From sequence record PQ478073.1: a DNA stretch of 64,000 nucleotides. One strand, 5' to 3'. Made by a program: the position numbers and the translations under genes. This DNA is from a phage. Each line of letters starts with the position of its first letter. Within the stretch, counting starts at the first letter, position 1. Shown piece by piece: positions 10,293 through 45,787 of the stretch. The notes under the pieces were generated by a model. The model saw only the letters and a program-made list of their open reading frames with translations. It was not told the DNA's origin and made no database searches.

Positions 10293-11132
10293 ATGACAAA
10301 TAGACCAAAGCGTAAAAAGTATCTCAATAATGCTGATTTACTTCGTGAAATACAAAAAAGTAAAATTTCATATTGCTGGTTATTAGACAAATCATATAGT
10401 ATGTATGATTATATTGTTTTTCATGAGTCAGAAATTACTGCTGAGTTACTAGAAAAAGCTAAGGCAGCACGAATTAAACGACTGAACAATGAAATGCTTG
10501 ATAGTATTCGTGAAAAGGAAAATATGAGTGCTAAAAAAGCTAAAGAATATGCAGATGAACACAATTTAGTTATCACTGACGTTCCAATTGATGAAGTTGT
10601 TATTCGTGTTATTACAGATGAACATATTCCACCAGATACTAGAGTTAACTTTGAACCATTCAAGCATTATATTGTAGATAATGAAGGTATTCTCTATGAA
10701 GTTTGTCGTTCTCACTGGAAAGGCGACCTTGAAACTGGTGAATTCAGTACTGTTCATGGTAAAATTACAAATGAACTTGGGAAGATGTTCATTAAACTTG
10801 CAGAGGAAATCTCACACAAATCTAATTACAGAAACTATACATACTTAGATGAAATGATGGGTGATGCAAGAATACAATTAGTTAAAAACGCACTTCTCTT
10901 TAAAGAGAGCATTCTTTATAAAAAAGATAAACCAGCAGTTCAGCTAAATCCTTTCTCTTACTATACATCATTCGTAAACAATAGTTTTCGTTCTATATTG
11001 AATAGTGAGAAAAATGTTCGAAATATACGTGATGATTTACTTGAAATGCATGGCTTTACGCCATCACATACACGTCAAATTGAAATTGAATTGAACATGA
11101 TTGAAAGGAAAAATGAAGATGGCTCTGTTTGA
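10293..11132 (+). CDS. 55: late-transcription sigma factor, gp55-like
   Basis: KKYLNNADLLREIQ and NPFSYYTSFVNNSFRSILNSEKNVRNI match recalled T4 gp55 ([39 protein letters not shown]); ~100 aa longer than T4 gp55. Confidence 0.65.
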   Translation: MTNRPKRKKYLNNADLLREIQKSKISYCWLLDKSYSMYDYIVFHESEITAELLEKAKAARIKRLNNEMLDSIREKENMSAKKAKEYADEHNLVITDVPIDEVVIRVITDEHIPPDTRVNFEPFKHYIVDNEGILYEVCRSHWKGDLETGEFSTVHGKITNELGKMFIKLAEEISHKSNYRNYTYLDEMMGDARIQLVKNALLFKESILYKKDKPAVQLNPFSYYTSFVNNSFRSILNSEKNVRNIRDDLLEMHGFTPSHTRQIEIELNMIERKNEDGSV

Positions 11133-12150
11133 TAAAGCAATTACATTCACTGATATTCATTTAGGTTTAAAGAATAACAGCAAGCAACACAATGAAGATT
11201 GTTTAAACTTCATTAAATTCATGATTGAGGTAGCTAAAAAAAATAATATCAAAGTTTGTGTTTTTATGGGAGATTATTTTCATAATAGAAGTAATATCAA
11301 TATCCAAACACTAAACTATGGTTTACAAATTCTTCAATTATTAAATGATAATTTTGAAAAAGTATATTTTTTAGTAGGCAACCATGATATGTATCATAAA
11401 AACAAACGTGATATAACAAGTATCAATATGGCTCAAGTTTATGAAAATATAGAATTCATTAATGAAATTACAACATTTGATGATTGTACTTTCATTCCAT
11501 TTATGATTGAAGATGAATATAAGTTGTTACCTCAACTAAAAAGTAAGTATGTTTTTGGTCACTTAGAGTTACCAGGTTACTTGCTTAACAAGATGGTAGA
11601 AATGCCTGATCATGGAAAAGAAACAGAAGGTTCTTTTGGTGGTTGTGAGTATGTTTTTAGTGGACATTTTCATAAAAGGCAGTCAAAAACAACTTCAAAA
11701 GGAACTCGTGTAGTTTATACTGGTAATTGTTTTCCACATAATTTTTCCGATACATGGGATGATGCAAGAGGTGTAATGATCCTTGAACATGGTAAAGAAC
11801 CTATTTTCAAATCATGGGAACATGCACCAAAATATAGAACATTTACACTTTCAGAATTGTTAACTGATCCTGGTTATTATCTTCAAGATAATACAATATC
11901 AAAAGTTCAAGTTGATATATCAATAACAACAGATGAGATTAGTTTTATTCGTGATACATTTACTAAACTTTACAACATTAGAGAGTTTAATGTTGTAACG
12001 AGCAAGCAAAGTATCGCAGAATTAATTGAAGATGGTGTTAGTTTTGAAAGTACTGAATCAGTTGATGAGATTGTGTTGCAGCAAATTATGGAAATTGACT
12101 CACCCATGTTTGATAAAAATCTTCTAATCCAAATTTACAGATCGTTATAA
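11113..12150 (+). CDS. 47: recombination endonuclease subunit, Mre11/SbcD-like (gp47)
   Basis: Calcineurin-like phosphoesterase motifs FTDIHLG, MGDYFH, GNHD, GHLE, SGHFH. Confidence 0.85.
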   Translation: MKMALFDKAITFTDIHLGLKNNSKQHNEDCLNFIKFMIEVAKKNNIKVCVFMGDYFHNRSNINIQTLNYGLQILQLLNDNFEKVYFLVGNHDMYHKNKRDITSINMAQVYENIEFINEITTFDDCTFIPFMIEDEYKLLPQLKSKYVFGHLELPGYLLNKMVEMPDHGKETEGSFGGCEYVFSGHFHKRQSKTTSKGTRVVYTGNCFPHNFSDTWDDARGVMILEHGKEPIFKSWEHAPKYRTFTLSELLTDPGYYLQDNTISKVQVDISITTDEISFIRDTFTKLYNIREFNVVTSKQSIAELIEDGVSFESTESVDEIVLQQIMEIDSPMFDKNLLIQIYRSL

Positions 12151-12158
12151 GGGACTAT

Positions 12159-14306
12159 ATGCTAAACATTACACGTATATCTATGAGGAACTTCTTTTCA
12201 TTTGGTAATGCACCACAATCAATTGAATTGAATGGTTCTGACATTTCATTAGTACTGGGTCAAAATAATGATGCAGTTATTGAAGGTGGTGACAGCACCG
12301 GACGTCGAAATGGTGTCGGGAAAAGTGCTATTATTCAAGGATTAGTTTTTGGATTATTTGGGAAAAGTATTGGTAATGATATTAAAATTCCTAACTTAGT
12401 CAATAAAACTAATGGTAAAAATTGTGAAGTAGTTGTAGAGTTTGAAAAAGATGGTGTACAATATCTGGTTGAACGTGGGAGAAGTCCCACGTATTTCAAT
12501 TTTGTTACTTTAGGGAAAGATAATAAAATTGAAGATGAATCAAGGGGAGAAAAGAAAGACACACAAGAAGATTTGAATGAAATTCTTGGTATATCTCAAT
12601 TATTATTTGAACATATTGTAGTACTGAATGCTAACGTTGAACCTTTCTTAGCTTTATCCACACAAAAACAACGTGATATGATAGAAGAACTTCTTGGAAT
12701 AACACAGTTGACGGAAAAAGCTGAAATGCTAAAGGAGATGTATAAGGATACTAAACGTTTAGCCGAACAAGAAAAGTTCAAAAATGAAACTGTAGCTGCA
12801 AGTAATGAACGTATTCAAAAAAGTATTGAGACACTACAAGAACAGGCAAACCAGTTTGAAATTGATAAAAATAATAGAGTATCTAAGTTAAATGAAGAGT
12901 TGAATATATATAAAACTTTAGACTTTAATGACCTCTATGAAGCTGCTGATATAAAAGAGAAAGCTCTTATTCATAACGCAAAGCGTGGGGAAATCGAACG
13001 CCGTGTACAAGAGTTGGCTTTAAAATTTGATGCATATGACCGTGAACTTGAAAGATCTAAAAGAGCATTAAATCTAAGCATTGATAAGCTAAAAACTATT
13101 GATATTAGTGCAGAATTGGAAAATCATAATGAGTTGGAGATATGGAAACAGTTAGAGGGTATTCTAAAAGAGAATAATAACCAAAAACGTTTCAAAGAAC
13201 AAAAACTAAACTCACTAAAAATAGCTTTAAAAGGATATGAATGTTCAATTAATGCTGAAATTGACAAATTATCAACAGTTGAAAACAGCAAATGTCCACT
13301 TTGTATGTCTGAATTAGAACATAACGAACATACTTCTTCAATTAAAGACAAAATCCAAAGTACTATTAATGATCTTCAAGCTAAAATTGATAGTTCTTCT
13401 TCTGAAATTGAAACATTACTTCAAGAAATTGATAGTATTGAGATTTTTGATATGCCACCTAAGCCTGTGACATATTATAATACACTTTCAGAAGCACAAA
13501 TGCATGAACATAAGCTTCAAGAATTGGTCAGAAAGAGTGAAGAAGAACAAATAAACATCTATGCAAATGAACTTATGTCATCATATGATGAACTTAACTC
13601 ATATGAACTAATGGAAGTTCCAGATACATTAAACAAATATGAAGTTAAAGAGTTAGAAATGACTGTAAATTCATTATCACAGCAATTAGATCGTGAATTG
13701 AAGACTACTAACACATTTATTAGCCAAATTAATACCCTGAAGACTGATTCTTTAGTACCAATCGATTATAGCGACTATAATAATCTTGATAAAATGTCAA
13801 ATCACCAAGATTTCTTGGTTAAATTACTTTTAAACAAGGATTCTTATGTCCGTAAACGTATTATTGAGCAAAATATCTCATATTTGAATACACGACTTCA
13901 GTACTATATCGATATGTGCGGTTCTGAGCATAATGTTGTGTTTTTGAATGATTTGAGTGTTGAAATTGAGAAGAGTGGACAGTACTTTGACTATAAACAG
14001 CTTAGTAGAGGTGAGCGTACAAGGGTAAACATCGCATTATCTTGTGCTTTCCGTGATACATATGAGTCATTATACCAAAGTATTAATATTCTTATCATTG
14101 ATGAGATGATTGACCAAGGTCTTGACTCAAGTGGTGTTCTACGTGTGTGGTCTATCTTCCAAGATATGGCTGCTGTACGTGGTAAGAACGTTTATGCTAT
14201 TTCCCACAGAGAAGAGTTACTATCTAAGACTGAAAAAATCCTCAAAGTTGTTAAAGAGGACGGTTTCAGTACTGTTGAATATGCAACCCTTGACGATGTT
14301 TTCTAA
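12159..14306 (+). CDS. 46: recombination endonuclease subunit, Rad50/SbcC-like (gp46)
   Basis: Walker A NGVGKSAI, coiled-coil with CPLC zinc hook, signature LSRGER, Walker B ILIIDE. Confidence 0.85.
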   Translation: MLNITRISMRNFFSFGNAPQSIELNGSDISLVLGQNNDAVIEGGDSTGRRNGVGKSAIIQGLVFGLFGKSIGNDIKIPNLVNKTNGKNCEVVVEFEKDGVQYLVERGRSPTYFNFVTLGKDNKIEDESRGEKKDTQEDLNEILGISQLLFEHIVVLNANVEPFLALSTQKQRDMIEELLGITQLTEKAEMLKEMYKDTKRLAEQEKFKNETVAASNERIQKSIETLQEQANQFEIDKNNRVSKLNEELNIYKTLDFNDLYEAADIKEKALIHNAKRGEIERRVQELALKFDAYDRELERSKRALNLSIDKLKTIDISAELENHNELEIWKQLEGILKENNNQKRFKEQKLNSLKIALKGYECSINAEIDKLSTVENSKCPLCMSELEHNEHTSSIKDKIQSTINDLQAKIDSSSSEIETLLQEIDSIEIFDMPPKPVTYYNTLSEAQMHEHKLQELVRKSEEEQINIYANELMSSYDELNSYELMEVPDTLNKYEVKELEMTVNSLSQQLDRELKTTNTFISQINTLKTDSLVPIDYSDYNNLDKMSNHQDFLVKLLLNKDSYVRKRIIEQNISYLNTRLQYYIDMCGSEHNVVFLNDLSVEIEKSGQYFDYKQLSRGERTRVNIALSCAFRDTYESLYQSINILIIDEMIDQGLDSSGVLRVWSIFQDMAAVRGKNVYAISHREELLSKTEKILKVVKEDGFSTVEYATLDDVF

Positions 14307-14314
14307 TTAAAGAT

Positions 14315-14341
14315 AAAGGGAGCCTTAGCTCCCTTTTTTTA
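14315..14341. terminator. bidirectional intrinsic terminator between convergent genes
   Basis: AAAGGGAGC-ctta-GCTCCCTTT then TTTTTTT; stop codon of minus-strand gene lies in the loop. Confidence 0.6.
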
Positions 14342-14816
14342 TATCAACCATATTTAATTTACCGTCCTTAATCAGCTTTCTAGCTTGCTTTACACGAGCA
14401 GTAGTGTTACTACCAGGGACAACTCCTAACCCTTCCAGAATCGCGTTTTGCTGTGTTGCTGGAAGCCTTTTAAACTTATTAACATCCACAGTTAGTGCAG
14501 TGTGATGTATAACTTGTTCATCGTCAGGAATGCTGTTATTACGCTCTAAGTAATCAGCAAGATTTCTGAGTACCTCATATAATGGTTTATCAGTTAAGTG
14601 CTTCATATATCGATTGAAGCTGTTTTGTACCTTTCCTTCCCAAGCATTGACTTCATTTTGAAGAACTTGTCTACAATGTTGGTTACCATAGTGGTAGTGA
14701 TCCAGTACTGGTTTAGTTATTGGTTCTTTAATTATAGGATCTATTCCATTTTGTTTCTTTAGCAATTCGTTTCGATAGTTTGCAGCATCCTTACTATCTT
14801 TTAATCTTTTTTTCAT
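14325..14816 (-). CDS. endonuclease VII-like His-Me finger nuclease (gp49-like), zinc ligands absent
   Basis: LDHYHY...NEVNAWEGK...FNR aligns with recalled T4 EndoVII HLDHDHE...CNAAEGQ...FNR; TATAAATA late box 30 nt upstream on minus strand. Confidence 0.45.
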   Translation of the reverse strand: MKKRLKDSKDAANYRNELLKKQNGIDPIIKEPITKPVLDHYHYGNQHCRQVLQNEVNAWEGKVQNSFNRYMKHLTDKPLYEVLRNLADYLERNNSIPDDEQVIHHTALTVDVNKFKRLPATQQNAILEGLGVVPGSNTTARVKQARKLIKDGKLNMVDIKKGS

Positions 14817-14846
14817 AATTCCTCACCAAACTATTTGTTATCAAAA

Positions 14847-14854
14847 TATTTATA
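14847..14854 (-). promoter_or_regulatory. late promoter box TATAAATA (EndoVII-like gene)
   Basis: Exact TATAAATA on minus strand 30 nt upstream of ATG at 14816. Confidence 0.5.
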
Positions 14855-14907
14855 GATTAGTTATTTGCAATATTTTAAGTACTTAATGAATATTTTTATA
14901 AAAATAG

Positions 14908-14936
14908 TGAGACAACTTTAAAGTTTGTGCTATAAT
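14908..14936 (+). promoter_or_regulatory. early/middle promoter, tGAGACA-N17-TGcTATAAT family
   Basis: TGAGAC, 17-bp spacer, extended -10 TGCTATAAT. Confidence 0.5.
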
Positions 14937-14942
14937 GTTTGT

Positions 14943-15397
14943 TGTAGTAATGACAATCCTGTTGAATGCAGAAATGCATATAAATTAGAACCTGATCCTA
15001 TCGAAAATGTAGATGGCAGATGAGCAGTTCAACAGTGCGATGAGCAAAAGAAACCCGTTAGATGTGGGCATAGTTTGAACCCCTCACGGCAATGCGGCTC
15101 AATAAAGAACTCCGATAAGCATACAGAGAGTTCCTAGATAGACATATAAGGATCGCACCTTACCAGATTTGCTAAGGGAGTTTATTAAGTGATTTTAATA
15201 AACAGCCTGAAGTTTGATTGTATAGACTTTCAGGTGAGTGTCAGGATGATTAAGACTGACGACCGTTGCACATGACTGCGATAGAGAGAAACAGAGCAAC
15301 CCGCTTTCGTTCTTAATATATTTTTAAGAAATTCGCAATACAATAAATGCTGAAACCATCAGCGTCAAGAAATAGAGACTTCATTGTCTCTTTTTTA
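14943..15397 (+). ncRNA. candidate structured non-coding RNA, family unknown
   Basis: Promoter 14908-14936 and intrinsic terminator 15374-15397 bracket ~455 nt with no ORF >=60 aa, elevated GC and several hairpins. Confidence 0.4.
15374..15397 (+). terminator. intrinsic terminator of candidate ncRNA
   Basis: AGAGAC-ttcatt-GTCTCT followed by TTTTTTATT. Confidence 0.6.
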
Positions 15398-15490
15398 TTG
15401 TCTTCATTCCCCTGCGGGGGGATGAAAATGTCCTCAACAAATCCCGTCAAGTATTAAATCTTTTAAAGTTCTTTATAATTAATTTAATTA

Positions 15491-15550
15491 AATGAATATG
15501 AGTTACGTAGTAACGAATATTCTTCAGCTAACGAATGAAATGAGTTAGAT
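15491..15550. repeat. AT-rich direct/inverted repeat cluster
   Basis: AATGAATATGAGTTA ... TAACGAAT ... TAACGAAT ... AAATGAGTTA; GTTAC-gta-GTAAC palindrome. Confidence 0.4.
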
Positions 15551-15615
15551 GAATCCAATAATATTAAAATTAATCCTTTCATAATTCAATTCAAATAATT
15601 CTGTAGTTTAAAACC

Positions 15616-15641
15616 AAAAAAAACCAGCAACAATGTGCTGG
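15616..15641 (-). terminator. intrinsic terminator
   Basis: CCAGCA-cattgt-TGCTGG hairpin followed by T8 on minus strand, after 15653 gene. Confidence 0.55.
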
Positions 15642-15652
15642 CTATATGAAAA

Positions 15653-15862
15653 TTAGTGCTTCTCGTTTTGTTTTTTAATTTTTTTATTAAAAGACTTAAC
15701 TAATAAGTCTCTATCTATTAATGGCATATTAAGGAGTGTTCCATAGTCAATGTTATCCATATATACAGAACATTCCATTAGTGCATTTTTGATTTCTGAC
15801 TTATTCAGTTCTATCTCCTTCAGTACTTCTTGTATTTCTTCAGGAGATGACTGGAGAAGCAT
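15653..15862 (-). CDS. hypothetical protein
   Basis: 69-aa ORF; start overlaps stop of upstream gene at 15862; minus-strand terminator follows. Confidence 0.5.
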   Translation of the reverse strand: MLLQSSPEEIQEVLKEIELNKSEIKNALMECSVYMDNIDYGTLLNMPLIDRDLLVKSFNKKIKKQNEKH

Positions 15863-16698
15863 TACTCGAAAAAATGACTAGGATCATATTTTAGTCCATC
15901 AATTTCCCATTGATGATTACATCCATCACATTCTACTTCCATACTATGAGATACACCAATTTCAAGTACTTCATCCATTTTTTCACGAATTAGTTTAAGT
16001 ACTCCCTTCGATTGTTGTCCAAGCCATTCATTAATAAATTCTTTTTCAACTACTTCATCACCATCTGGTGTTATAATTTTTGCAATAACTCCACCAATCA
16101 TATCGAAGTTAAGTTGAGCCATGTTTTCAAATACTTCAGAAAATATTTTTACTTTTTCATCTTTATCAATATCAGCAGTTTCAAGAAACTTAGTCTTCTG
16201 CTGCTCACTGAACATGCGTTCAGCAAACGATGAATATTCTTTCCATGTCAGTGGTCTAAATTCTAAACGTAGTCCATTATCTAAATCAATTGATGGGATT
16301 TCTTCAAATGCTTGTGCAGTTTCAAGAAGATATGATAGATTACGTTCAAATCGACCTTCTTTTTCACATTCAGGACATACAACGTTAATATCATATGTTT
16401 CTTCTTTAGAAGCAACTTTAATAGCAATAAGAAGCATTTCAACGTCATTTACATACAACTCATCAGCGTCAATTACATTAGGAACACAGTTTTCAATAAC
16501 ACGGGATACTGCATCTCCGTTTAGTAACATATCGGGGGTATTAAGTGTCATTTCATCACGTGCACTACGTGCACAAACTCCACATTTGACACCTTTTGGG
16601 CCTAGAACTCCTTCTTTATAAGGAATAACGCCGTTTGTAACTAACTTAGTACTGATCTCTTCAATTTTAGTGTACTTAGCAAGTGGATTCATAGCCAT
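15862..16698 (-). CDS. late protein with CxxC zinc-ribbon motifs
   Basis: 278 aa; CGVC, CPEC, CDGC pairs; TATAAATA late box 35 nt upstream on minus strand. Confidence 0.55.
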   Translation of the reverse strand: MAMNPLAKYTKIEEISTKLVTNGVIPYKEGVLGPKGVKCGVCARSARDEMTLNTPDMLLNGDAVSRVIENCVPNVIDADELYVNDVEMLLIAIKVASKEETYDINVVCPECEKEGRFERNLSYLLETAQAFEEIPSIDLDNGLRLEFRPLTWKEYSSFAERMFSEQQKTKFLETADIDKDEKVKIFSEVFENMAQLNFDMIGGVIAKIITPDGDEVVEKEFINEWLGQQSKGVLKLIREKMDEVLEIGVSHSMEVECDGCNHQWEIDGLKYDPSHFFE

Positions 16699-16732
16699 TT
16701 TATTAAATCTCCATGTAATAAATGTGTTTTAG

Positions 16733-16740
16733 TATTTATA
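16733..16740 (-). promoter_or_regulatory. late promoter box TATAAATA (zinc-ribbon late gene)
   Basis: Exact TATAAATA on minus strand 35 nt upstream of ATG at 16698. Confidence 0.5.
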
Positions 16741-16828
16741 AGACTAAAAAAGATTAAATTAAACTAATTTTTATATTCTCTATAGTTTCATAAATATTTC
16801 TATAATACATCTATTAAAAGGGAATGTT

Positions 16829-19033
16829 ATGGCTGGAAATACAAGTGATTACCTACTCCAGCAGTTGGTTAATCAAACTAAAGATAACAACGATAGTTTG
16901 AGTGCTATACGTGAGTTATTGGCTGAAAATATAAAAAATGATAGAAAGAAATCCGGTTCTAAAAGTGGAAAACGTAATGGAAGTAATTCATCAAGTTCTG
17001 GAAACCGTGGCTCTCGAACAAATAACAAAGCTGATGATGGTAAAGAATTTGGAAAAATATTCAAATCATTATCATCTGAAGTATCGAATGTCGGCAAAAC
17101 TATGATGAGTACGTCTGCAAACGTTAGCAATGTTGTAAACTCACTAGGAATGAGTGCATCTTCATTTGCTGGTTCATTAGCAATGATCCCAGGTCCAGTT
17201 GGTGCAGCAGCATCTGCATTCAAATTGGTTGCTGACGCTGGTTTAGCAGTTTATAATGTGTTAAATGCACAGCTTGAAGTTTATAATAGAATAAACAGTG
17301 CTGGTGTCGCTCTATCTGAAGGTTACGGCTCCATATTAAAAGGTGCTGGTGCATCAATGATGAGTATTGATGCATTTGGTGAAGCATTACAAACTCATAG
17401 TGCCGTTGTTGCACAATTAGATGGTGCATATGGTGATGGTGTTTCTACATTTGGTAAATTATTGGGTACTGTGCAACAAGCACAAAATCAATTAGGTTTA
17501 TATGGTGTTTCTCAAAAAACATTAACTGATTTAACTGCACGTAATATTAAATTCCAAAAGCAATTTGGTGGAAGAGAAATGTTACGTAGTATGGATCAAG
17601 CAAAAAGTACTGAACAGTTTATCATGAGTATGACTAAGTTCAGTAAAAGTATGGGTGAGTCAGTTGATGCACTATTAAATAAAACACAAAACTTAGATAA
17701 ATCATTAGACACACGTTCAATGCAAATCGCATTACAAAACTATTCTGGATTATCTAGTAAAGCAGCAGTTGCAACATCAAAAGCATTTAACGAAGCTGCT
17801 GCCAGTATGGGTGATGCTGGTGCAGATTTTCTACGTTTAATTTCACATCGTTTAACTATTGGTGGAGTACCAGATGATTTATTGACTCCAGTACTGAACC
17901 AATTTGCTGATTTAGGTGAGAACTTGGTACGTAGTGGTGTTACTGATTCACAAGAAATTCGCCGTCAACAATTGGAATTTGTTAAAAAGAACAAAGAACT
18001 AATAAAGCAAGATTTATTAAATCAGATACAATTAGGAAACACTACGGCAGCAACCTTCAACCAACAACTACTTGATATGGAAGCTGCGATTAATGATCCT
18101 AAGAGTCAACCAGCAGATAAACTAACACAATTCACTGATAGATTCAATAGATGGATTAGTAAAGAATTTACTGAACCATTTAATAAAATGTATGCAGATA
18201 CACAAAATTCTATTGCGGATTACCTTACTGATATTGCAGACCGTACTGATGGTGCATGGGAATTTATCGGAGAGTTAGCACTTGATGGTTTTGGTTTGGT
18301 TCCTATTGCGAAAGATGCAGTTGCGTATTTGGATAGGATTGGTGGTGAGTTTGAGCAGTGGTTAGAAGGGTTAGGTACTGAAATTTTTGGTAGTGGATAT
18401 AATAAAGTTTCAGAAGCATTTGATAGCTTTATGAATAACCTAATGGATCTTCCTGGTAAACTTTGGGATTCTGTTAAAGGTTGGTTTGGTGGATCAGACG
18501 ACAAAGTAAAAGTAGAAAACAATTCTGTTACCGATGGTGCAGAAAAAGTTAATAATTATTTTGAAGAAAAAATGAATTCATTTGGTGATTATATTTCTAG
18601 TTCATTTGATGGTTTTTTAAAATGGAATTCAAGTAGAAACTTTAAACAACCAAAACCCCTTGATGAATCAGTTGCTGAAAAACTTATTAGTAGTGGTCTT
18701 GAAAATAAGCCAAGAGCAACTGCGAGAATCGAAAAATCTGAACATGTTGCACCATATGTTACCATAACTCCAAAAACTTTTGATAAATCAGCATGGGGTC
18801 CAAATGAACCACCAATTCAAGCTGAACCGGACGATTATGAGGCCATGAAAGCGATGATAAATAGTGGTAGTAGTATGGCAAATGCTAATAATAATGCCAC
18901 AATATCAGAAGACATGAAAGAGTTACTTAAAAAACTTGCTGATGTTAATGAGCAATCTCTATCTGCCGTGCAACAGACAAATAACTATCTAAGAACTATC
19001 TCTGAAAACACTCAAGGTGAGAGAAACAGTTAA
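16829..19033 (+). CDS. virion structural protein (tape-measure-like or internal protein?)
   Basis: 734 aa; low-complexity S/G/N-rich N-terminus and Ala-rich helical segments; immediately precedes portal gene. Confidence 0.5.
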   Translation: MAGNTSDYLLQQLVNQTKDNNDSLSAIRELLAENIKNDRKKSGSKSGKRNGSNSSSSGNRGSRTNNKADDGKEFGKIFKSLSSEVSNVGKTMMSTSANVSNVVNSLGMSASSFAGSLAMIPGPVGAAASAFKLVADAGLAVYNVLNAQLEVYNRINSAGVALSEGYGSILKGAGASMMSIDAFGEALQTHSAVVAQLDGAYGDGVSTFGKLLGTVQQAQNQLGLYGVSQKTLTDLTARNIKFQKQFGGREMLRSMDQAKSTEQFIMSMTKFSKSMGESVDALLNKTQNLDKSLDTRSMQIALQNYSGLSSKAAVATSKAFNEAAASMGDAGADFLRLISHRLTIGGVPDDLLTPVLNQFADLGENLVRSGVTDSQEIRRQQLEFVKKNKELIKQDLLNQIQLGNTTAATFNQQLLDMEAAINDPKSQPADKLTQFTDRFNRWISKEFTEPFNKMYADTQNSIADYLTDIADRTDGAWEFIGELALDGFGLVPIAKDAVAYLDRIGGEFEQWLEGLGTEIFGSGYNKVSEAFDSFMNNLMDLPGKLWDSVKGWFGGSDDKVKVENNSVTDGAEKVNNYFEEKMNSFGDYISSSFDGFLKWNSSRNFKQPKPLDESVAEKLISSGLENKPRATARIEKSEHVAPYVTITPKTFDKSAWGPNEPPIQAEPDDYEAMKAMINSGSSMANANNNATISEDMKELLKKLADVNEQSLSAVQQTNNYLRTISENTQGERNS

Positions 19034-19044
19034 GGACGAAAATA

Positions 19045-20784
19045 ATGAGTTGGAAACGACATATGACAGTGGGAAGGTCTAAACTATCGACCATCCCAAA
19101 TCAGTCCAGTAATAGCAATAAATCAACAGGAACGAAAACAAATTTCGCTTCCTATCTTCCTGTTGTATATAATGGATTGGCAAACCGTACTGAGCGTTAT
19201 AGTCAGTATGAGCAAATGGACCAAGATCCTGAAATTAGAACTGCATTGAATATAATTGCTGACTTTTGTACCCAAAGTACTGAAGATTTTGGTTTACCAT
19301 ATAAAATCAAATATAAAGATGACATTGGTGATACTGAAGTAACGACTATTGAAGATCGTTTAGATGCATGGACTGAACAAAATGATTTTAAAACACGAAT
19401 GTATGAAATTGTGCGTGGTCTTCTGAAATATGGTGATCAATTTTTCATTCGAGATCCAGAAACATTCGATTGGTATTGGGTAAGCCCCAAAAATGTTGAG
19501 CAAGTATTTGTTAACGAAGCCACTGGTAAAACACCAGTAATTTATTATATACGTGACGTATCATTAAATTTGAAAGATAAAGTTTTTAGTAACCTTCAAG
19601 TAGGATTTGATAAAACCGCTTATCCAGGAGCTATTCCGACAACAATGGGTGGCGGTGGTTCAGTAGCTGCGGGTGGTGCATCTGGTTTTACAAGTCAAGG
19701 AAATACTGCTGACCCATTCAGTACTAACGGTCAATTAGACGTTATTCCTGTTGGTGCAGAACACGTAATTCATCTAACGCTAAATACAGGACAAGATGGG
19801 GTATGGCCTTTTGGTACTAGTATACTTGAGGACGTATTTAAAGTCTATAAGCAAAAAGAACTTCTGGAAGATAGTATCATAATTTATCGTGTACAACGTG
19901 CACCTGAGCGTCGTGTATTTAAAATTGATGTTGGTGATATGCAAGCACACCAAGCGATGGCTTATGTTGAAAGATTTAAAAATGAAATCCACCAGCGTAG
20001 AATACCTTCAAACAAAGGTGGAAGTACTTCATTAATGGATGCAGCATATAATCCATTAAGCATTTTAGAAGACTACTTTTTCCCACAAACTTCTGAAGGT
20101 CGTGGTTCAGATGTTCAAACATTACCAGGCGGTGATAACTTAGGACAAATTGATGACTTACGTTATTTTAATAATAAATTGATTCGTGGTCTTCAAATAC
20201 CAGCTTCTTATCTACCACAAGGTCCAGATGATGGTGGTGTTTCATTATTTGGTGATGGTGCTACACAAGCTATGGCAAGTGAATTGCGATTCAATAATCA
20301 ATGTATGCGTTATCAACGTTTAGTTGCAAAACATTTTGATGCTGAATTCAAAAGATTTATGGTTAAAAATGGATATAACATTAGTACTTCATCTTTTGAA
20401 GTTATTATGAATCCACCTATTAACTTAGCTTCTTATCGTAAAGCTGAACTAGATGCTAAACTAATTAATACATATCTTCCTCTTAATGACTTGCCTTATA
20501 TGGCGAAACAAACAATTCTTGAAAAAATGGGCTTTTCTAAAGCTGATATTGTTAAGAATGAACAAATGTGGTTACAAGAGAATCCACAAGATGGTTCCCA
20601 ACCTTCTGGTGGTGAAGAAGATTCCGCTGGATTACAGTCTGTTGGTATTGATGCTCCAAATGATCCTGGAATGGATCTTGGTATTGATGGAGAAGGTAAT
20701 TTGGAAAGTGCTGATGCCGAATACCAAGAGCAACAGAGTGGAAGTGGTGGTTTCAACCCTAATAATTTAGGCAATTCTTTTTAA
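19045..20784 (+). CDS. 20: portal vertex protein (gp20-like)
   Basis: 579 aa; position directly upstream of core proteins, protease, scaffold and capsid genes as in T4; no catalytic motif to verify. Confidence 0.55.
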   Translation: MSWKRHMTVGRSKLSTIPNQSSNSNKSTGTKTNFASYLPVVYNGLANRTERYSQYEQMDQDPEIRTALNIIADFCTQSTEDFGLPYKIKYKDDIGDTEVTTIEDRLDAWTEQNDFKTRMYEIVRGLLKYGDQFFIRDPETFDWYWVSPKNVEQVFVNEATGKTPVIYYIRDVSLNLKDKVFSNLQVGFDKTAYPGAIPTTMGGGGSVAAGGASGFTSQGNTADPFSTNGQLDVIPVGAEHVIHLTLNTGQDGVWPFGTSILEDVFKVYKQKELLEDSIIIYRVQRAPERRVFKIDVGDMQAHQAMAYVERFKNEIHQRRIPSNKGGSTSLMDAAYNPLSILEDYFFPQTSEGRGSDVQTLPGGDNLGQIDDLRYFNNKLIRGLQIPASYLPQGPDDGGVSLFGDGATQAMASELRFNNQCMRYQRLVAKHFDAEFKRFMVKNGYNISTSSFEVIMNPPINLASYRKAELDAKLINTYLPLNDLPYMAKQTILEKMGFSKADIVKNEQMWLQENPQDGSQPSGGEEDSAGLQSVGIDAPNDPGMDLGIDGEGNLESADAEYQEQQSGSGGFNPNNLGNSF

Positions 20785-44968: not shown

Positions 44969-45787
44969 ATGACAAAATTAAATGAGTTTTTATCAAATGT
45001 AGCAGTTCTAGATACTGAAACTACTGGGGTTGAGAGTGAAGATGATATTATTGAATTTAGTATCTCGTATCCACATACTTCACATGAAAACATTGATACT
45101 ATTGATAACTATACATTGAGATACAAACCCTTGAAAGATATTCCACCAGAGGCATCTGCTGTGCACTTTATCAGTACTGAGGATGTAGCTAATTGTGTTG
45201 GGTATAAAGATGATTTAGATAACATTGATGCACTTATGGGATGCCGTAAGTATTTTGTTGGTCATAATGTACAATTTGACCGTAGAATGATGGTAGATAA
45301 CGAATATAAATATCGTAACTCAATTTCACAGTACTTACTTGATGAAAATAAATGGATTTGTACCCTTCGTCTTGCTAAGAAAATGTTCGCAGAAGATATT
45401 GAATTTAAAAACTTAACTCTAAGTTATTTGTGGTATAAGTTTGGATGTTATCGTGATGTTCATCGACCTGTTAATGCACACGCAGCAAAAGACGATGTGT
45501 TTATGTGTTATCAGGTTCTAATCAAATTAGTTGAAATTGCAATCGAACGTGGACATATCGAACCTAATGGTGATATTGGTGAGCAAATTGTAACTTTCTG
45601 CAACACACCAATGCGTTATCAATTCATGCCATTTGGTAAACACAAAGGTGTGCCAATGAGTACAGTTCCATTGAATTACATTGAATGGATGATTACTAAT
45701 AGTGACATTTTAGATGCAAGTAACCCTAACTGTGATAAAGATTTAGTATATACATTTGAGTACGAATATAATACTCGAACTAATTAA
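44969..45787 (+). CDS. DnaQ-like DEDDh 3'-5' exonuclease
   Basis: Exo I VLDTETTG, Exo II GHNVQFD, Exo III HAAKDD; C-terminal FGKHKG motif. Confidence 0.75.
   Translation: MTKLNEFLSNVAVLDTETTGVESEDDIIEFSISYPHTSHENIDTIDNYTLRYKPLKDIPPEASAVHFISTEDVANCVGYKDDLDNIDALMGCRKYFVGHNVQFDRRMMVDNEYKYRNSISQYLLDENKWICTLRLAKKMFAEDIEFKNLTLSYLWYKFGCYRDVHRPVNAHAAKDDVFMCYQVLIKLVEIAIERGHIEPNGDIGEQIVTFCNTPMRYQFMPFGKHKGVPMSTVPLNYIEWMITNSDILDASNPNCDKDLVYTFEYEYNTRTN

Follow-up and report, generated by a model that had tools for sequence, protein, structure and literature searches.

A 163-amino-acid (aa) open reading frame (ORF) homologous to endonuclease VII (EndoVII) of phage T4, the product of gene 49 (gp49), lies on the minus strand of phage record PQ478073.1, within the 64,000-nucleotide (nt) stretch analysed here (the window). 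T4 endonuclease VII is the textbook phage junction-resolving enzyme, and its Cys4 zinc site is treated as part of the family signature. The protein in the window keeps the catalytic residues of the T4 enzyme and has none of its four zinc ligands. Positions 11000-17000 of the window are 99-99.9% identical (megablast) to Escherichia phages JP4, phAPEC6, SP27, PBECO4, and 121Q, which are Asteriusvirus-type, Rak2-like jumbo myoviruses of ~350 kb. This places the window in a jumbo coliphage of 121Q/PBECO4/JP4 type (Asteriusvirus). The phage has the expected gene 49 equivalent, and the gene is no new find: public records and the literature on Rak2-like phages already give it as endonuclease VII. The matching records name the ORF "endonuclease VII", "packaging and recombination endonuclease", or "hypothetical protein". 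In the related phage CBB, an endonuclease VII homologue has been reported beside gp46/gp47 (PMC5259590); the gene goes unmentioned in the genome papers on JP4 and Sharanji.

The ORF begins with ATG and is convergent with a 715-aa gp46/SbcC-like gene, and a terminator-like hairpin at the junction overlaps its last codons and stop codon (Table 1). This arrangement differs from that of T4, where gene 49 lies elsewhere in the genome. The predicted protein contains the motifs L38-D39-H40-Y41-H42, N57-A58-W59-E60-G61, and F67-N68-R69 and exactly one cysteine, C48.

Table 1. Positions of the EndoVII gene, its motifs, and other features in the window
Feature	Position	Strand	Remark
Exact copies of TATAAATA	4158, 10197, 14847, 16733	minus	
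Late sigma factor gp55-like gene	10293-11132		
Bidirectional terminator-like hairpin	14315-14336		Junction of gp46-like and EndoVII genes; 9-bp stem on both strands, T-run on plus strand
EndoVII ORF, 163 aa	14325-14816	minus	T4 gp49-type homologue without Cys4 zinc site
N57-A58-W59-E60-G61 codons	14634-14648	minus	Metal-binding Asn at start of His-Me helix (T4 N62...E65-G66); from alignments
Q53-N54-E55-V56 codons	14649-14660	minus	At place of T4 second half-site C58-x-x-C61; from alignments
R49 codon	14670-14672	minus	T4 R54, active-site arginine
D39-H40-Y41-H42 codons	14691-14702	minus	DHxH catalytic motif (T4 D40, H41, H43); from alignments
D26-P27-I28-I29 codons	14730-14741	minus	At place of T4 first zinc knuckle C23-x-x-C26; from alignments
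Shine-Dalgarno GGTGAGG	14821-14827	minus	Before EndoVII ATG; read from sequence
TATAAATA	14847-14854	minus	T4-type late promoter motif, 30 nt upstream of EndoVII ATG
Conserved non-coding element, ~430 nt	15019-15448	minus	Upstream of EndoVII gene; flanks conserved to ~14960-15470
Small hairpin	15374-15391	both	A-run before, T-run after, terminator-like both ways; in 5' part of the element's flank
Portal gene	19045-20784		
Exact copies of TATAAATA	22691, 23900, 34034, 45305	plus	

The original prediction, made from the sequence alone, had aligned the protein with the His-Me finger core of T4 EndoVII (LDHxH, NAxEG, FNR) and had noted that the four zinc-binding cysteines appear to be absent, with one Cys in the whole protein. 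Both points hold, and two of the checks it had proposed, a profile search and a structure prediction, lead to T4 EndoVII. The reference was T4 endonuclease VII (gp49; PDB 1EN7, 1E7D, 1E7L, 2QNC, 2QNF; PF02945; PHROG 423), and the gp49 sequence used is identical to PDB 1E7D/1EN7. In BLASTP the protein is 34% identical to T4 gp49 over 77 residues (E 8e-5). PHROG 423, "endonuclease VII", matches residues 1-150 with an E-value of 1.3e-35; it is also the PHROG of T4 gp49, which is matched end to end (E 5.4e-61). An alignment of the 72 sequences forming the clade of the protein was compared with T4 gp49 using hhalign, which gave a probability of 94.6% (E 6.5e-8, 112 columns). When the profile of this clade was searched against PDB, only its three T4 EndoVII sequences were matched (best E 1.1e-4). 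PF02945 was matched at E<=0.01 by 36/72 clade members. A GAAD match in the Pfam search was dismissed as spurious.

The AlphaFold2 model, built on the 72-sequence alignment, has a mean predicted local distance difference test score (pLDDT) of 93.7, with values of 97-98 over residues 21-40. It has strands at 36-41 and 47-53, followed by a helix at 54-70. The His-Me (beta-beta-alpha-metal) core is present, since D39-H40-Y41-H42 and N57 align with T4 D40-H41-D42-H43 and N62 in BLASTP, MAFFT, and hhalign. The full-length architecture of the T4 family is found as well: an N-terminal His-Me domain, long helices, and a C-terminal helical domain. Foldseek returned three significant matches in PDB, every one of them T4 EndoVII (162 aligned columns; template modelling score for 1E7L 0.67/0.69), at 22-25% identity in the structural alignment. 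Given the profile, hhalign, and Foldseek results, the similarity extends beyond the His-Me finger to all of T4 EndoVII, with its helical dimerisation region and its C-terminal part. The extended monomer model resembles the T4 protomer and is consistent with a domain-swapped homodimer.

Compared with T4 EndoVII, the protein has a C-terminal extension of ~10 residues and an insertion, IPDD (residues 96-99, window 14520-14531), of four residues between helices. The insertion is confined to the closest clade members from Escherichia, Salmonella, and Klebsiella phages, and it is missing from 137-140 of 140 family representatives (sequences of at least 120 aa, 50% clustering).

In the T4 enzyme the Cys4 site tethers the loop that follows helix 1 to the beginning of the His-Me helix. 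The alignment register at this site is the same in BLASTP, in a MAFFT alignment of 157 family sequences, and in hhalign. All four T4 zinc ligands are replaced: C23, C26, C58, and C61 correspond to D26, I29, Q53, and V56, and the CX2C...CX2C pattern of the T4 family is not found in the 163-aa protein. The catalytic residues D40, H41, H43, R54, N62, and E65 of T4 correspond to D39, H40, H42, R49, N57, and E60, and are unchanged. In T4 EndoVII the CX2-4C and CX2C motifs bind one zinc, the catalytic metal is held by D40 and N62, and R54 lies within the active site (PMC6083498).

The same pattern is seen throughout the clade. D26-P27 is invariant (72/72), position 29 is I/T/L/V, position 53 is Q/D/E, and position 56 is V in 55/72 sequences and C in 12/72. 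A Cys4 site was found in 0/72 members. The catalytic residues are all invariant in the clade, and the mean column identity of the clade alignment as a whole is 64%. Across the 140 family representatives both DHxH histidines (H40, H42) are invariant, as are R49, N57, and G61, and D39 is present in 139/140.

A structural metal might instead be held by other ligands, for example by D26 with H47/C48, or by C48/H73/H104/H105. Within the close clade, C48 is near-invariant (68/72) and H73, H104, and H105 are found in every member. Among wider relatives, many carry His at the T4 C58 position and three have a CCHC set. However, the query has Q53 and not His at that position, and the candidate columns vary over the 140 representatives. 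The C48 column contains 64 V, 47 C, and 21 I, the H73 column is H/W/Y, and the H105 position is Pro in 100/140. H104 is conserved also in T4 (H105), where it is not a zinc ligand. Because its column alternates with V/I and T4 has V53 there, C48 marks a buried hydrophobic position. No conserved alternative Cys/His cluster or four-ligand set was found across the 140 representatives or the 72-sequence clade, and because of this a structural zinc is unlikely. Both alternative sites (C48/H73/H104/H105 and D26/H47) were rejected on family-wide conservation, and a re-wired zinc protein is an improbable explanation. A D26-R54 salt bridge as a substitute for the zinc was likewise rejected: R54 is common in relatives with either D26 or C26, and the query has N54.

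The loss is widespread. Of 1.84 billion cluster representatives searched with the clade profile, 556 proteins passed E<=1e-3 and 181 passed E<=1e-10. Among the 151 best representatives, 5 have the full Cys4 at the four T4 ligand positions, 3 have C-C-H-C, 3 have two Cys, and the remainder have one Cys (usually C-P-I-L/T at the first position) or none; these proportions are biased by a seed profile that is itself Cys-less and show the size of the subfamily, not its fraction of all PF02945/EndoVII proteins. The typical first knuckle is C-P-x-C in the zinc-bearing relatives and D-P-I-T or D-P-I-I in the Cys-less ones. In these alignments the knuckle proline is retained while Asp takes the position of the first Cys, and a large subfamily, rather than this protein alone, has lost the cysteines.

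The closest non-jumbo relatives, identified with tblastn, are found in rV5-like phages (Vequintavirinae), phiTE, Ralstonia phage RSB1 (Autographiviridae), and phage C75C1, with 41-50% identity over the N-terminal domain. Like the protein in the window, these homologues have a D-P or C-P turn and no complete T4-type Cys4 site. In rV5 and phiTE the protein is extended at the N-terminus, the first ligand position is D or C, and several cysteines stand at shifted positions (ILC, PCLDH, RCRG, QCTN). The RSB1 and C75C1 proteins are shorter (~121 aa) and have no zinc site. No biochemical characterisation of the rV5, phiTE, RSB1, or C75C1 EndoVII was found in the literature searched. A review of the His-Me superfamily places EndoVII among the zinc-knuckle families and describes many His-Me fingers without a knuckle (PMC5714182). 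In the zinc-free colicin DNases and phage P1 Ref, the beta-beta-alpha-metal core is stable without a zinc knuckle, but these are other families, with other accessory elements than EndoVII.

One metagenomic EndoVII homologue (P0188, 446 aa) carries an insertion of ~285 aa within the DHxH active-site motif. This insertion, which begins with Cys and ends in ...GN with Cys next, matches LAGLIDADG_3 weakly and is probably an intein interrupting the EndoVII catalytic motif.

The gene order around the EndoVII gene is gp55-like, gp47/SbcD-like, and gp46/SbcC-like, then EndoVII on the opposite strand. Beyond it are a non-coding stretch, a baseplate hub gene, a gene for a 734-aa virion protein, the portal gene, and head protease and capsid genes. 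Cronobacter phage GAP32 and Erwinia phage Hallingskeid have the same order, with EndoVII proteins that share 74% and 62% identity with this one, and for this reason the EndoVII gene is a vertically inherited syntenic core gene of Rak2-like phages, not a mobile nuclease. UvsX, UvsW, and gp46/47 homologues are listed for the same phage group (PMC5259590). A family hidden Markov model searched against six-frame ORFs picked out a single EndoVII-family ORF both in the window and in the complete sister genome OR844650. The features expected of a gene 49 orthologue are thus found together: a single EndoVII gene, gp46, gp47, gp55, and portal genes nearby, and the TATAAATA motif upstream, from which late expression is predicted.

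These observations bear on the second alternative of the original prediction, a differently functioning His-Me nuclease. Such a protein could be a free-standing homing endonuclease, degrade host DNA, or act against host defence. F-CphI (cyanophage S-PM2 ORF177) uses the EndoVII motif for homing; it shares the DHxH...N motif with the protein in the window and is Mg2+-dependent (PMC6083498). The Pfam match of the window protein is sub-threshold, and in the sister phage a probable mobile nuclease gene adjoins the EndoVII locus. However, F-CphI retains CX2-4C and CX2C, which this protein does not, and it carries the motif C-terminally, behind an unrelated N-terminal part. Homology and predicted fold span all of T4 EndoVII here, including the C-terminal helical domain. 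F-CphI is a mobile, sequence-tolerant homing enzyme, whereas this gene is single-copy, is fixed in a syntenic position across genera, unlike a homing gene, and has diverged between those phages to an extent that fits vertical descent. No second EndoVII-family gene was found in the complete sister genome, and phmmer searches for E. coli RusA, E. coli RuvC, and T7 endonuclease I with unverified query sequences gave no match below E 0.1, a weak negative as remote homologues would escape. A different job is therefore disfavoured and must be considered unlikely. A catalytically inactive remnant that only binds DNA or the portal is less likely still: the stabilising zinc site is gone and in T4 the changes C23S and C61S abolish both activity and DNA binding (PMC6083498), but the catalytic residues are conserved throughout the 140 representatives, cross-genus conservation is strong, and the fold is predicted with high confidence.

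Seven of the eight copies of TATAAATA in the window are intergenic and lie 16-56 nt upstream of an ORF on the same strand; the eighth, at 45305, is inside a large ORF. The genes behind the placed copies are structural, hub, EndoVII, and capsid-region genes. An ATAAATA late-promoter-like motif has been reported for the Rak2-like group (PMC5259590). The placement fits T4-type late promoters that would be read by the gp55-like sigma factor encoded in the window.

Homology and context together make it the best explanation that the protein does the job of T4 gp49 in the jumbo phage without structural zinc. This was the first alternative of the original prediction, a zinc-independent packaging resolvase, and full-length homology, invariant catalytic residues, synteny, and the lack of an alternative Cys/His cluster favour it. 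The probability that the ORF is the T4 gene 49 EndoVII orthologue of the phage, junction-resolving, zinc-independent, late-expressed, and with a role in packaging, is estimated at roughly 0.75. The enzyme would be a dimeric, Mg2+-dependent His-Me (beta-beta-alpha-metal) nuclease cutting branched DNA such as Holliday junctions, Y-junctions, and heteroduplex loops. The catalytic metal would be bound by D39 and N57, with H40 and H42 taking part in catalysis and R49 and E60 lining the site. The first knuckle would be replaced by an invariant Asp-Pro-Ile-Ile/Thr turn and the second half-site by Q-x-x-V, and the fold would presumably be held by the Asx-Pro turn and hydrophobic packing, with hydrophobic residues in the three remaining ligand positions, in place of the metal. 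With predicted expression from a T4-type late promoter, the enzyme would remove branches that arise in the DNA during recombination-rich replication and would otherwise obstruct headful packaging through the portal. In T4, gp49 is a portal-associated protein that frees packaging motors stalled on Y- or X-branched DNA (PMC9958956).

Several results weigh against this interpretation. The PF02945 score of the protein is 14.8 bits, below the gathering score of 23.6, no NCBIfam model matches it, and a single-sequence phmmer search of PDB sequences was empty, so the relationship to T4 needs profiles or structure. E60 (T4 E65) is retained in only 62/140 representatives, with L/I in its place in roughly half of the family at large, and active-site details may therefore differ from those of T4. 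Since T4 C23S and C61S are inactive (PMC6083498), loss of the Cys4 site requires compensation. The 8 copies of TATAAATA compare with 10.2 expected from shuffles, which is no enrichment, and the evidence from this motif is its placement only, not its number. The literature searched, which left out most subscription journals, yielded neither biochemical work on a Cys-less EndoVII nor any explicit account of one.

The gap of ~830 bp upstream of the EndoVII gene houses the conserved non-coding element. It has a coding-like G+C content of 0.38-0.43 and no ORF longer than 45 aa. The element is present at the syntenic site in GAP32 and Hallingskeid (70-76% nucleotide identity), and the sister genome has three further paralogous copies elsewhere (70-79% identical). 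By blastn it was found in 71 phage records at 291 places, with 4-5 copies per genome. All of these are Rak2-like jumbo phages, and the element is essentially unannotated in their records. Neither the gathering threshold nor E<=1 produced a credible Rfam match, no tRNA was found in the element, and a link to the "four ncRNAs" of PA5oct could not be made.

Twenty copies, including some from IMG/VR, were aligned and the structure was predicted with RNAalifold. It comprises 65 pairs in 12 helices, with compensatory changes in 28 pairs, and a long-range closing helix joins 15448 to 15019 on the minus strand. The small hairpin (helix 3) shows compensatory changes among copies: GAGAC/GTCTC, GTAC../..GTAC, GACCC/GGATC, and ATACC/GGTAT. 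In the alignment 96.1% of the cells are paired, as opposed to 38-47% when the partners are slid, and the covariation score is 0.325 versus 0.03-0.085; 0/500 shuffles reached the observed values. G-U cells outnumber A-C cells (107 vs 19), and pairing is 96.1% on the minus strand versus 89.3% on the opposite strand, which points to an RNA transcribed from the minus strand of the window. The three non-syntenic copies of the sister genome are oriented opposite to the neighbouring genes, and the element is therefore not simply a 5' leader. It looks like a candidate for an undescribed family of large structured RNAs. This multi-copy RNA is the more unusual object at the locus and probably more novel than the EndoVII.

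In OR844650 (sister phage ECO103 4-12-1) a 323-aa ORF lies between the element and the EndoVII gene (128961-129932, minus). It has DUF723, DUF4379 treble-clef, and DUF2726 nuclease-like domains, is absent from the window, and is probably a mobile nuclease gene insertion.

What is new about the EndoVII gene is the explicit recognition that this protein and the large subfamily around it are without the zinc site. It is reasonably probable that they form a large EndoVII lineage of predicted active, zinc-free resolvases, in which the Asp-Pro turn replaces the knuckle and CCHC and single-Cys intermediates persist. Its members would be found in Rak2-like jumbo phages, rV5-like phages, some Autographiviridae, and many metagenomic viruses. 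A subfamily that keeps the catalytic centre and the fold without the four ligands suggests that the zinc is a replaceable scaffold. The loss of the site explains why standard Pfam thresholds miss Cys-less EndoVII proteins, which constitute a defined natural sequence set for testing what compensates for the metal. If this interpretation is true, the lineage would be a natural series for studying the loss of a structural metal site and a possible source of chelator- and oxidation-tolerant reagents for cleaving mismatches or junctions.
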